Assembly: GCA_049609625.1 (NCBI GenBank)
Contig: JBMYYR010000005.1
Coordinates: 1-54,121 of the forward strand
Direction of reading: 5' to 3'
Length of the DNA: 54,121 nucleotides
DNA from: Flavobacteriales bacterium
Lineage (GTDB): Bacteria; Bacteroidota; Bacteroidia; Flavobacteriales; CAJXXR01
How positions within the stretch are numbered: position 1 is the first letter of the stretch; every line of letters starts with the position of its first letter. Both the position numbers and the translations under genes were made by a program. The notes below the pieces were generated by a model, which searched no databases, had not been told where the DNA came from, and worked only from the letters and a program-made list of their open reading frames with translations. Positions 37,607 to 39,634 of the stretch are shown here, one piece after another.

Positions 37607-38269
37607 CTATTGAATGGAGTATGTGTATTTCAAAGAAAGCACATCAGCCGTTGCTGGTTCAAGAGCCTTTAATTCTTTTTCATAAAGGTAATATAAGGCT
37701 ATTTTTCCGTGATTTGCCAGTTTAAAACTTGTGCCTATCGAAAGGCGATAGCTTGTTGGTCTGTCGGCACTGGTATCTAGCGAATTGAATAGCTCCCCAG
37801 AAACTTCGGGATCAAATTTCCAGTTACTGATATTATAATCTGCTTCTAGCTTGAGGCGCAGGTCGTCCTTTGTGTCTGTTTTATCCTCAAATGCTTTCCG
37901 ATGCTGAACACGCACAACAGAACTAAGTGCCAGGCGGTCAAATTTATATTTATATTTTAAGCCCAGTTGATACCGAATAAAGTGTTCGTAACCTTGCTTT
38001 TTGCCTTCGTTGTCATTTTTGTTGATGAATCTAAGAGCTGAAACGAGTTCAAAGTGGTCGTTTAGTTTATATTTTGCTCCAAGCTGAGTAAGAAGTCCTT
38101 TTATTTCGCTAGAATTTTTGTCTAAGCGCATTTGCTCTTTTAGGCTGAACGTCCAAACTGACTTGTGTTTATACTGTAAGCCAAGAGAAGTCCAAGATTC
38201 AAAATCTCTGCTTTGAGCCAAACCAAGCGTAGAAACAATAAGCATAATGCTTAGAAACTTAATGCGCAT
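37607..38269 (-). CDS. DUF2490-family outer-membrane beta-barrel protein
   Basis: Signal peptide ending LAQ, then DFESW. Alternating hydrophobic strands, R..QHR, LRLKL.ADYNI.NWK.DP..SGELF, terminal LSLKYTYSIQ. ATG 38269 preferred over 38293. Confidence 0.75.
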   Translation of the reverse strand: MRIKFLSIMLIVSTLGLAQSRDFESWTSLGLQYKHKSVWTFSLKEQMRLDKNSSEIKGLLTQLGAKYKLNDHFELVSALRFINKNDNEGKKQGYEHFIRYQLGLKYKYKFDRLALSSVVRVQHRKAFEDKTDTKDDLRLKLEADYNISNWKFDPEVSGELFNSLDTSADRPTSYRLSIGTSFKLANHGKIALYYLYEKELKALEPATADVLSLKYTYSIQ

Positions 38270-38882
38270 TTTTGGGCGAGTTGTGATCTTCATAATAGTA
38301 AATAGTTAGGTTTGCGGTGTCTTTTAAAAAGTCGATGTTTTTGACAAGTACTTTTTCAATACTTAAGCCCGTTCGATGTTCCAAATCAGACTTTAATTTG
38401 TCGTAATGTTCTGGCTTTATCAATTCGATGTTTTCGTAAACAATATTTTTTTCTGTATAACGCTTCGCTAGCCAATAGAACTCCAACAAGGCAATAGAAG
38501 CCGTAACGGCAATATTGGCCATAAAAATCTCGGCGTAACTCATTCTTTTGTTTGCCAAAGCATTGATAACAGAAACACCGATAACAACAAATAAATAGGT
38601 CATTTCCTTAATCGGTATGGGATCTGTTCGATAGCGAATAATTCCAAAAATAGCAAACAGCCCTAAAGCCATACCAATATCCAATTCATATTTTTTTAAC
38701 GTAAAACAGAGTAAAAACACAATTATGCTTATCATATAAAACGTAAACAGATAGTCTCGCAATTTTGAGGTTCTGAAATACAAATATTGAATGATTAGTG
38801 TGGTGAATGTCAGATTGATAAAAAATCTGAAAATCAACTTAATAAAATCATCATCGTAGACGGGAATCCCTAAAAAATCCAT
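38259..38882 (-). CDS. DUF4956-family inner-membrane protein
   Basis: About five TM helices with the family signature GMALGLFAIFGIIRYRTDPIPIKEMTYLF, followed by a small soluble C-terminal domain (IVYENIELIKP...DL..RTGL.I...IDFLKD). Confidence 0.88.
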   Translation of the reverse strand: MDFLGIPVYDDDFIKLIFRFFINLTFTTLIIQYLYFRTSKLRDYLFTFYMISIIVFLLCFTLKKYELDIGMALGLFAIFGIIRYRTDPIPIKEMTYLFVVIGVSVINALANKRMSYAEIFMANIAVTASIALLEFYWLAKRYTEKNIVYENIELIKPEHYDKLKSDLEHRTGLSIEKVLVKNIDFLKDTANLTIYYYEDHNSPKNAH

Positions 38883-38896
38883 GTGTTTTTTGTTGC

Positions 38897-39634
38897 TTAA
38901 AGGTTATTTATTTTAAAAAGTTTTTGCTTGAATCTATTGTATTTCAAGTTCTTATACAAACTCAACATGCCGATGCAGTATTTACTGATGCTGTAAGGAT
39001 AAAATCGAAATGTTTTAAGAACCGACACGATAGGTGTGTGCCGATTGTAGGCTCTTTGTTTTACTTCCACAACAACAAGCTTGTCGTAAAGCACTTTTTT
39101 TTCATCCGATTGGTAATAAATGTCAAAATCAATCGTAATGCGCTCTTTGTTTTGAATATTTACCAAAGTGATACGCTTAAAACCATTCCAAAGTGTTGCT
39201 ATCAATGTATGGTCTTTTGCTGTTGTTTCTTTAATAAACGTCTTGGAGTTGGCAGATAGATGCGTTTCAAAATCTTCAATTCTAATTCTGGATTTATCTG
39301 TTTCGCCTTTGTTGTTTTTTTGCTTTATTTCTAAAAAAAATAAATCTGATTCAACATAGTTTCTGATACGTACTTTGGTGCGGTTAGGCCTGGCGTTGTG
39401 ATGATCGTTGTAAAATTGATTTTCTGGCGAATCAAAATACAAAGACTTATAGGTCATTATCCGATTTCCAGAAATTTCGAGCACCCGATATTGATCAGAA
39501 ACAGACTCTAAAATAGGCGCTAGCTTAGCTATTGGAATCACAAATTTTGTGTCCGTTCGTTTCATCAACGCCACCTCATTCATCTCTGCTAAAGAGATGC
39601 TCGAAAAGGTGTTGATTTGATTTTGAATGGACAT
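38897..39634 (-). CDS. VTC-domain (polyphosphate polymerase-like, TTM/CYTH superfamily) protein
   Basis: LMKRTDTKF, SLYFDS...FY.DH...R.KVRIRNY, FLEIKQK, RITLV...ERITIDFDI, VVEVK, ISKYCIG. No TM helix, signal peptide or SPX domain. Confidence 0.9.
   Translation of the reverse strand: MSIQNQINTFSSISLAEMNEVALMKRTDTKFVIPIAKLAPILESVSDQYRVLEISGNRIMTYKSLYFDSPENQFYNDHHNARPNRTKVRIRNYVESDLFFLEIKQKNNKGETDKSRIRIEDFETHLSANSKTFIKETTAKDHTLIATLWNGFKRITLVNIQNKERITIDFDIYYQSDEKKVLYDKLVVVEVKQRAYNRHTPIVSVLKTFRFYPYSISKYCIGMLSLYKNLKYNRFKQKLFKINNL

Follow-up and report, generated by a model that had tools for sequence, protein, structure and literature searches.

A stand-alone VTC-domain protein paired with DUF4956 in a possible polyphosphate export cassette of a Flavobacteriales bacterium

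We analysed a 54,121-nt stretch of DNA from a Flavobacteriales bacterium (assembly GCA_049609625.1, contig JBMYYR010000005.1, positions 1 to 54,121; referred to as the window), with focus on three tightly packed minus-strand open reading frames (ORFs) that encode a VTC-domain protein, a DUF4956 membrane protein and a DUF2490 outer-membrane protein, and on a porin–CotH gene pair that faces them from the other strand. The source genome is a 1.94-Mb assembly of 135 contigs and is 83% complete. Coordinates and translation confirm what the preliminary description of this DNA had stated, namely that a DUF4956 ORF carrying the motif GIIRYRTD starts 14 nt downstream of the VTC-domain ORF (39634 to 38897, followed by 38882 to 38259), and the start of the DUF2490 ORF in turn overlaps the end of the DUF4956 ORF by 35 nt. 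On the plus strand, the Porin_O_P gene lies 132 nt upstream of the CotH gene, and no clear terminator was found between the convergent operon and CotH genes. The five genes are as follows.

38897..39634, minus strand: stand-alone VTC (Vtc4-like triphosphate-tunnel) protein, 245 aa, a putative cytoplasmic polyphosphate polymerase (Pfam PF09359, E 7.2e-31)
38259..38882, minus strand: DUF4956 inner-membrane protein, 207 aa, a candidate conduit or anchor (Pfam PF16316, E 1.9e-51)
37607..38293, minus strand: DUF2490 outer-membrane beta-barrel protein, 228 aa, with a signal-like N-terminus, third gene of the operon (Pfam PF10677, E 2.7e-22, and a weak OMP_b-brl match)
34149..37478, plus strand: secreted, multidomain CotH-kinase-family protein, 1109 aa, convergent with the operon (Pfam CotH, E 2.1e-33; LTD, E 5.7e-15)
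32781..34016, plus strand: homologue of the OprO/OprP family of phosphate-selective porins, 411 aa (Pfam PF07396 Porin_O_P, E 1.7e-12)

The 245-aa protein scores 108 bits against PF09359 (cut-off 23) over residues 25–227, covering profile positions 1–235 of 235, and all seven motifs listed for it beforehand are present in the translation (KRTDTKF 25–31, SLYFD 64–68, KVRIRNY 87–93, FLEIK 100–104, RITID 165–169, VEVK 189–192 and SKY 217–219). It had also been described as lacking the SPX domain and the transmembrane (TM) helices of eukaryotic Vtc4, and indeed VTC is its sole Pfam domain, with neither an SPX nor a TM domain detected, and its AlphaFold2 model, built on 28 relatives (pLDDT 87.7, pTM 0.85), contains no TM helix. 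The Foldseek comparison with the yeast VTC structures, which the preliminary description had put forward as a check, turned out in favour of a Vtc4-like fold: chains of Vtc2, Vtc3 or Vtc4 take all of ranks 1–11 (TMq 0.59–0.67, E 2.7e-11 to 1.2e-9), the yeast Vtc4 tunnel domain being the closest solved fold (8i6v_E, E 2.7e-11; 3g3r and 3g3q at TM 0.64–0.67) and Vtc2 coming next, with weaker matches to E. coli YgiF (5a60, 2e-8) and to hydrolases and cyclases of the CYTH/triphosphate-tunnel metalloenzyme (TTM) type (~1e-7). In the PDB, neither the single protein nor a profile restricted to 28 close relatives picked up Vtc4 by sequence. A broader profile, built from 29 diverse VTC proteins of bacteria that came mostly from the loci fetched for this study, matched Vtc4 (3g3q_A) at E 2.2e-24, matched Vtc2 (1e-14) and Vtc3 (about 1e-9 to 4e-10) with partial domain coverage only, and found no solved chain besides these three at E up to 10. 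Fold and profile together support the assignment of the 245-aa protein as a predicted Vtc4-like catalytic tunnel domain. Its basic, conserved C-terminal helix (228–245) was also considered as an amphipathic membrane anchor and set aside, its hydrophobic moment of 0.19 being below that of many internal segments.

At the residue level, yeast Vtc4 offers a detailed reference. According to bioRxiv 10.1101/2023.01.27.525886, triphosphate is held there by K200, R264, R266, K281, R361, K458, S457 and Y359, mutation at any of these eight residues lowers polyphosphate, Mn2+ is held by E426, and inactive Vtc2 and Vtc3 depart from Vtc4 at K458 alone, where they have Ile and Leu, respectively. The equivalences between the window protein and Vtc4, taken from the profile alignment with 8i6v numbering, are given below.

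R26 = R196; K30 = K200; Y66/D68 = Y241/D243
R89 = R264; R91 = R266; E102/K104 = E279/K281
K114/R116 = K294/R296; F152 = Y359; R154 = R361; R165 = R373
E190 = E426; K192 = K428; S217/K218 = S457/K458

Eight of the nine Vtc4 residues for triphosphate and Mn2+ are thus kept in the window protein, the exception being Tyr359, which is replaced by F152. Within the 29 bacterial sequences K30, R89, R91, K104, R154, S217 and K218 are invariant or nearly so, with K218, the counterpart of the discriminating K458, found in 29 of 29, and E190, the counterpart of the Mn2+-binding glutamate, is kept in at least 90%. Since the fold, the profile match and eight of nine residues including the discriminating lysine all agree, a polymerase is the best inference for the 245-aa protein and probably the correct one, well supported at the residue level and with one notable substitution.

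Two features of the sequence could nevertheless point to a tunnel-fold hydrolase or binder, such as a triphosphatase, a polyphosphatase or, in line with other CYTH/TTM proteins of bacteria, a nucleotide-triphosphate enzyme, instead of a polymerase. Strand 1 of the bacterial VTC family reads R-x-D/E-x-K, with D28 (Glu in the other clade) in the place of Vtc4 Thr198, a pattern which we take to be closer to the hydrolytic CYTH motif. The phenylalanine F152 is invariant among close relatives of the window protein, the other bacterial clade having Tyr in this column, and the change Y359F lowers polyphosphate in yeast (bioRxiv 10.1101/2023.01.27.525886). Most characterised bacterial TTM enzymes are moreover hydrolases or cyclases, the classes to which the weaker structural matches belong (YgiF and the CYTH proteins). 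We nevertheless consider such an enzyme quite improbable, as the bacterial profile matches Vtc4, Vtc2 and Vtc3 alone among solved chains, with Vtc4 best, as K218 is invariant, and as R85 and K87, two extra basic residues on the same strand, are invariant in the bacterial family and stand where Vtc4 has A260 and A262.

The second protein of the operon scores 174.6 bits against PF16316 (cut-off 30.6) and carries GIIRYRTD at residues 80–87. Its family is large, with 1337 cluster representatives matching at E <= 0.001, from which 80 diverse homologues were taken for alignment and model. The resulting AlphaFold2 model (pLDDT 90.5) shows five helices (11–39, 43–64, 69–83, 91–108 and 116–138), followed by a small C-terminal beta-alpha-beta-beta domain at 143–196. 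All 80 homologues carry F79, R83 and R85, the two arginines belonging to the loop R83-Y84-R85, and G70, G74, L75, F76, A77, T86, F98, N107 and E134 are nearly invariant. Mean net charges over the 80 sequences amount to -1.8 for the N-terminus, +1.8 for loop 1, -0.1 for loop 2, +2.4 for the RYR loop, +0.2 for loop 4 and +0.7 for the region after helix 5. Applying the positive-inside rule to these segment charges, the most likely topology is N-out and C-in, with the RYR loop and the C-terminal domain on the cytoplasmic side. The preliminary description had called GIIRYRTD a basic, conserved intramembrane loop; basic and conserved it is, and its likely location is the cytoplasmic face of the membrane. 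The small cytosolic C-terminal domain that had been read from the sequence is reproduced by the model and placed on the same side by the charge bias.

Natural variants of the family bear on this topology. In one DUF4956 variant (P0273), helix 1 is preceded by a signal peptide and an acidic segment, in agreement with an N-out orientation. In fusions of DUF4956 to CotH (P0121, found on 4 contigs, and P0149; 671–676 aa) a hydrophobic, lipobox-like segment ending in Ser-Cys lies between the two parts, and such an extra hydrophobic segment between the C-terminal domain and an exported CotH part agrees with a C-in orientation; judging from this feature, release of the CotH part as a lipoprotein is conceivable. 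A VTC–DUF4956 fusion (P0222) was downgraded as Rosetta-stone evidence, since it has no extra TM helix between its parts, which conflicts with the N-out topology, and since its junction resembles two adjacent genes with a lost stop codon. Likewise, apparent DUF4956–DUF2490 fusions (P0164, P0237) may be overlap or frameshift artefacts.

Searches for the wider kinship of DUF4956 returned little. Foldseek gave nothing in the PDB below E 0.087, the top match of a wide VIA-align search was a designed helical cage (Z 8.7), the others being generic helical structures, and no VTC chain was among the Foldseek or VIA matches listed; the ESM Atlas returned DUF4956 itself alone, and neither the window protein nor the 80 homologues matched any other Pfam family at a meaningful E. 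There is no detectable likeness to Vtc1, to the Vtc TM helices or to any solved channel by sequence, Foldseek or VIA, so that any equivalence with the eukaryotic VTC channel would most likely be a functional analogy at best and neither homology nor a split of the eukaryotic complex. The proposal that DUF4956 plays the part of Vtc1 and the Vtc TM helices in a split VTC complex is thus only partly supported. The accompanying idea that arginines line the path survives in a reduced form: the TM helices are nearly devoid of Lys and Arg and instead hold the conserved acidic or polar residues E93, N107, N123 and E134, therefore arginines cannot line the whole path and could at most surround the cytoplasmic entrance of an oligomer as rings. 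DUF4956 and the VTC protein, predicted as a 1:1 complex from unpaired alignments, scored 0.00, a value that speaks neither for nor against binding.

This architecture invites a reading of DUF4956 as a membrane anchor or regulator, built from MgtC-like helices and an ACT-like ligand-binding domain, which would hold or regulate the VTC protein or signal to CotH and the surface-polymer machinery, while polyphosphate stays cytoplasmic. DUF4956 shares its overall layout with the MgtC/SapB family (PF02308), helices in the membrane preceding a small alpha/beta domain at the C-terminus, and the few weak matches that Foldseek lists for this last domain have ACT-type folds (such as IlvN, AcuB and regulatory subunits of aspartate kinase; E 0.4–0.9). 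In PMC12345266, SIR_1592 of Streptococcus intermedius, which we infer from two papers on pel loci to be a DUF4956 protein, is described as a four-TM, MgtC-like plus ACT protein. TM helices that are not basic and an occurrence of DUF4956 without VTC would likewise fit an anchor or regulator, as would two sub-threshold matches of the MgtC model on distant DUF4956 genes (E 8e-4 and 9e-4; 21 bits vs a cut-off of 31.4). Membership in the MgtC family, a check that had been suggested at the outset, found no confirmation, however: with an E limit of 5, PF02308 matched neither the window protein nor any of its 80 homologues, hhalign against 11 MgtC proteins gave a probability of 1.3%, and the conserved motif of MgtC is ERE...K..AG.RT, in contrast to RYR in DUF4956. 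A purely anchoring or regulatory role, which we hold to be rather unlikely, would also leave unexplained why DUF4956 is the sole inner-membrane gene in the adaptor and duct operons described below, and why an outer-membrane barrel gene overlaps it in the window.

The association of the two proteins was followed through the phylum by searching 251 sampled genomes with four Pfam families and counting pairs by hand; as these genomes are related and not independent, the counts express linkage and carry no P value. A match was found for VTC in 38 genomes, for DUF4956 in 77, for CotH in 101 and for DUF2490 (E <= 1e-5) in 82, and all 38 VTC genomes have both DUF4956 and CotH. In 39 of the 42 VTC matches DUF4956 follows immediately downstream on the same strand, in 2 it lies within 3 kb, and the last is a fragment of 54 positions. 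Among 14 control genomes, VTC and DUF4956 were both matched in the same 3 (B. thetaiotaomicron, C. glutamicum and M. acetivorans). The two families also split in the same way into types A and B, with type B pairs, the window's kind (n = 14), scoring 154–185 bits for DUF4956 and 70–112 bits for VTC, and type A pairs scoring 41–75 and 101–153 bits, respectively. The pairing is more than chance, and the gene order makes a functional partnership of VTC and DUF4956 highly likely.

DUF4956 is, however, not confined to this partnership. No VTC match was found in 39 of the 77 DUF4956 genomes, CotH is present in 74 of the 77 (the exceptions being G035, G051 and G111), and in family f28, of which 41 genomes were sampled, DUF4956 and CotH occur in precisely the same 33. 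PPK1 is present in G111 and in three f28 genomes. A complete single-contig genome (G135, locus L025) carries DUF4956 followed by DUF2490, convergent with CotH and with no VTC gene. DUF4956 tracks CotH more closely than it tracks VTC and is not simply the polymerase's channel; the VTC-less genomes together with this tracking form the strongest result against reducing it to the channel component of a split VTC complex.

The nested sets (38 VTC genomes within 77 DUF4956 genomes, 74 of these within 101 CotH genomes), the congruence within f28, the natural fusions P0121 and P0149 and the window layout minus VTC at L025 favour a different core, consisting of DUF4956 and the secreted CotH protein. 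DUF4956 would then supply another phosphoryl donor or cofactor, e.g. a nucleotide, or help to export or anchor CotH, with VTC as an optional modulator. We judge this to be unlikely: the VTC-then-DUF4956 order in 39 of 42 cases and the phosphate-type porins would be left unexplained, Pfam revealed no nucleotide-transport signature in the window DUF4956 protein or its 80 homologues, and 27 CotH genomes are without DUF4956.

The genomic surroundings of the pair in relatives were surveyed at 26 VTC loci and 10 VTC-less DUF4956 loci, spread over families, with ORFs considered within ~3 kb of the pair. At 13 of the 26 VTC loci, the neighbouring genes include a membrane-fusion-type adaptor. In 11 type A loci (L005–L018, e.g. 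L012:7529-8599, plus strand) it is a protein of ~355 aa without Pfam match directly upstream of VTC; these 11 proteins are mutually homologous (E 1e-20 to 1e-111), and one of them retrieved HlyD/CusB-type adaptors from the ESM Atlas by features (0.96–0.99) and by predicted structure (TM 0.5–0.69), matches that are leads and not proof. The family thus looks like a divergent periplasmic adaptor of the HlyD/CusB type. The other two are Pfam HlyD genes, one following DUF4956 in L010 and one in L036, where the gene order is CotH, DUF4956, HlyD, OEP (TolC-like), VTC. At L013, the order is VTC, DUF4956, a 334-aa Porin_O_P-like protein (22 bits vs a cut-off of 20.9) and CotH. Among VTC-less loci, L031, L032 and L034 share the order DUF4956, HlyD-like protein, ~410-aa protein without known family, and L030 resembles them, situated behind a 1756-aa lamin-tail/T9SS (type IX secretion system) protein. 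None of the adaptor and duct operons examined contains an ABC, RND or MFS pump gene, therefore DUF4956 is the only inner-membrane candidate in them. The gene neighbourhoods thus support the view that DUF4956 repeatedly occupies what would be the inner-membrane position of an export route, beside adaptors, ducts or barrels, and from this genomic context a function as the conduit itself appears possible, with a probability that we put slightly below even.

Other neighbours recur in these loci, namely SdiA-regulated/phytase-like proteins (L006, L007, L011), Cthe_2159 carbohydrate-binding proteins (L009, L019), BNR/T9SS proteins (L005, L008), metallophosphatases (L026, L027) and a GH114 hydrolase (L017). 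In the two VTC-less loci with phosphatases (L026:9419-10444 and L027:9387-10457), DUF4956 is followed by a familyless protein of 341–356 aa (38% identical between the two) and then by a calcineurin-like/purple-acid phosphatase. In G035 and G051, which lack both VTC and CotH, DUF4956 is convergent with the gene of a ~625-aa protein that contains a PPDK_N (phosphoenolpyruvate/pyruvate-binding, ATP-grasp-like) domain (L028:9272-11167 and L029:9117-10994, both minus strand). At L017 (G224; 6800-9136, plus strand), a 778-aa ORF has VTC as its C-terminal third, while its first 500 residues match nothing in Pfam; the GH114 glycoside hydrolase gene (6172-7014, minus strand) is adjacent, and a CotH match follows DUF4956.

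The remaining parts of the window's cassette are directed to the outer membrane and the cell surface. The DUF2490 protein shares 34% identity (E 6e-38) with the DUF2490 protein beside DUF4956 in L025 and is also homologous to those beside DUF4956 in L023, L039 and L022; a divergent, mutually homologous branch of DUF2490 flanks the type B pair in G000, G087, G119, G135, G075, G040, G077, L021 and L022. The Porin_O_P homologue passes the family threshold with 47.7 bits (cut-off 20.9), with only the N-terminal 135 of the 370 profile positions matched, and it also matches DUF2490 weakly (E 4e-4), which suggests that the two barrel families are distant kin. The CotH protein belongs to its family by sequence (PF08757, 116.7 bits vs a cut-off of 23.8) and combines a hydrophobic N-terminus with a lamin-tail domain, CHB_HEX_C/Fn3_assoc, CotH, InlB-like repeats and a C-terminal T9SS sorting domain (TIGR04183, 32.5 bits vs a cut-off of 23). 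CotH also adjoins the cassette in L010, L013, L014, L025, L035 and L036. The window is a compact variant, in which DUF2490 and OprO/P-like barrels replace the adaptor and the TolC duct.

In bacteria, polyphosphate is the product of PPK1/PPK2 chemistry inside the cytoplasm. We propose a model in which the VTC–DUF4956–DUF2490 operon and the facing porin–CotH pair represent the Bacteroidota version of a widespread envelope cassette, with polyphosphate synthesis feeding an envelope export route. As the model is built on gene content and gene order, we put it forward tentatively and at somewhat less than an even chance. The 245-aa protein would act first, probably as a cytoplasmic, Mn2+-dependent enzyme which, judging from its conserved residues, adds the gamma-phosphate of ATP to a growing polyphosphate as Vtc4 does. 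The chain or its phosphoryl groups might then be handed to DUF4956, a step to which we give slightly less than an even chance: the RYR loop, facing the cytoplasm, would capture the polyanion, similar to the Lys/Arg rings in the vestibule of the yeast channel, and DUF4956, probably as an oligomer, would pass it across the inner membrane. To judge from the neighbouring genes, the outer membrane would be crossed via the DUF2490 barrel, the OprO/P-like porin or both, and in relatives an HlyD-type adaptor and a TolC-like duct would take this role. In a last and speculative step, the T9SS-secreted CotH kinase would use or modify the product at the surface. The most far-reaching version, in which polymerase-coupled polyphosphate export is non-homologous to eukaryotic VTC and the exported polyphosphate serves as phosphoryl donor or substrate of the CotH kinase, is improbable on present evidence.

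Several observations weigh against this model. To the residues F152 and D28 of the enzyme, the missing likeness of DUF4956 to the Vtc membrane parts and the scarcity of basic residues in its TM helices, described above, it has to be added that the source genome also encodes PPK1 and PPK2. G135 has no VTC or PPK1 match and carries two tandem PPK2 genes. Given such VTC-less DUF4956 genomes, VTC-made polyphosphate is therefore not the universal cargo. Furthermore, no phenotype is reported in the accessible part of PMC12345266 for the deletion of SIR_1593, which encodes the polymerase domain in S. intermedius.

The proposed system can be compared with characterised ones. Yeast VTC (3g3q, 7ytj, 8i6v) contains a catalytic tunnel domain of the same Pfam family and fold as the window enzyme, with triphosphate and Mn residues including K458 in common, and in both the polymerase is coupled to a membrane protein, in the window at the level of the polymerase gene. 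Both also feature basic residues at the cytoplasmic membrane face, the yeast vestibule having two positive rings (K24/R31) and DUF4956 its RYR loop. In contrast, the window enzyme is a separate soluble protein without SPX and without the fused 3-TM domain, its F152 stands at the position of Tyr359, and yeast Vtc4 docks on the pore with Trp287 of its beta4–beta5 loop, which is shorter in the bacterial protein and has no counterpart of this residue. DUF4956 is unrelated to the yeast membrane part in sequence, gave no fold match to it among the matches listed and occurs also without VTC. While yeast VTC is directed to the vacuole, the proposed target of the window system would be the cell envelope or exterior.

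The same three families, CotH, polymerase and DUF4956, occur in one locus in Gram-positive bacteria. Whitfield et al. (bioRxiv 10.1101/768473) name cotH, DUF4956, DUF4832 and a gene for a polyphosphate polymerase as accessory genes of Gram-positive pel loci, and NELoc-2 of C. perfringens holds VTC, membrane proteins annotated as 'tubulin/FtsZ' and CotH (Lepp et al., PMC2879425). Deletion of SIR_1592 or of SIR_1594 (CotH) in S. intermedius reduced aggregation in artificial sputum medium by >50% and changed Pel, and the authors did not find a trio of the SIR_1594-1592 type outside pel loci (PMC12345266). The window differs in that it belongs to a double-membraned, Bacteroidota-type genome, has the trio outside a pel locus, with no pel genes near the cassette in the window, encodes a 1109-aa T9SS cargo as CotH protein, and adds DUF2490 and Porin_O_P as outer-membrane parts. 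In a transcriptome table for B. thetaiotaomicron, BT3498-99 (DUF4956, DUF2490) appear as a unit (PMC10434189). Our full-text searches of the literature returned no functional study of a bacterial VTC/DUF4956 member; the papers that mention the gene set list it without a mechanism.

The cassettes of relatives resemble tripartite exporters in that one operon combines the VTC/DUF4956 pair, or DUF4956 alone, with an adaptor and in some cases with an OEP duct as well. They differ from these exporters by the absence of an ABC, RND or MFS pump, so that DUF4956 would be a new inner-membrane partner, and the pair in the window further differs in having beta-barrels in place of an adjacent adaptor or TolC gene. 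The gene upstream of CotH is akin to Pseudomonas OprP/OprO (PF07396), as it scores above the gathering threshold of Porin_O_P. Pyro- or polyphosphate is the preferred substrate of OprO.

Further genes surround the cassette in the window. Two lie closest to it.

39842..42097, plus strand: full-length RelA/SpoT homologue (HD_4, RelA_SpoT, TGS, ACT_4), divergent from the VTC operon with a 207-nt spacer
31808-32533, minus strand: TonB_C protein just before the Porin_O_P gene

The adjacency of RelA/SpoT to the cassette was treated as a coincidence, as it was not seen in the other loci examined, where the nearest comparable case is a small HD_4 protein two genes away in L021. thyA (42107-42904) and then folA (42922-43446) precede the gene of a 1620-aa T9SS cargo with SprB repeats and Sortilin/BNR-like and PKD domains (43530-48392, plus strand). 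At 51448-53009 (plus strand), the genes of a DUF6088 protein (E 2e-67) and, after it, of an AbiEii nucleotidyltransferase toxin (E 3e-38) overlap by 4 nt, an arrangement that looks like a type IV AbiE-like toxin–antitoxin pair. NCBIfam holds no model for any of the three operon proteins, and PADLOC defence models gave 0 families for the five cassette proteins at E <= 0.001. A scan for sigma-70-type promoters returned 2 sites vs 8.8 expected and is uninformative, as it does not cover Bacteroidota promoters.

If the proposed model holds, an active, envelope-wired bacterial polymerase of the Vtc4 type would constitute a third route of polyphosphate synthesis and the first dedicated route of polyphosphate export. 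It would at the same time give a function to DUF4956, to a branch of DUF2490 and to secreted bacterial CotH proteins, large families whose function is unknown or misfiled and which are common in gut and marine Bacteroidota and adjoin biofilm (pel) loci in Gram-positive pathogens. The window adds to these a compact cassette variant with a phosphate-type porin beside CotH. Were the exported polyphosphate to serve CotH kinases as phosphoryl donor or substrate, this would moreover explain how such a kinase functions in the ATP-free space beyond the cytoplasm, and the fuel of extracytoplasmic kinases would thereby become a directly testable question.

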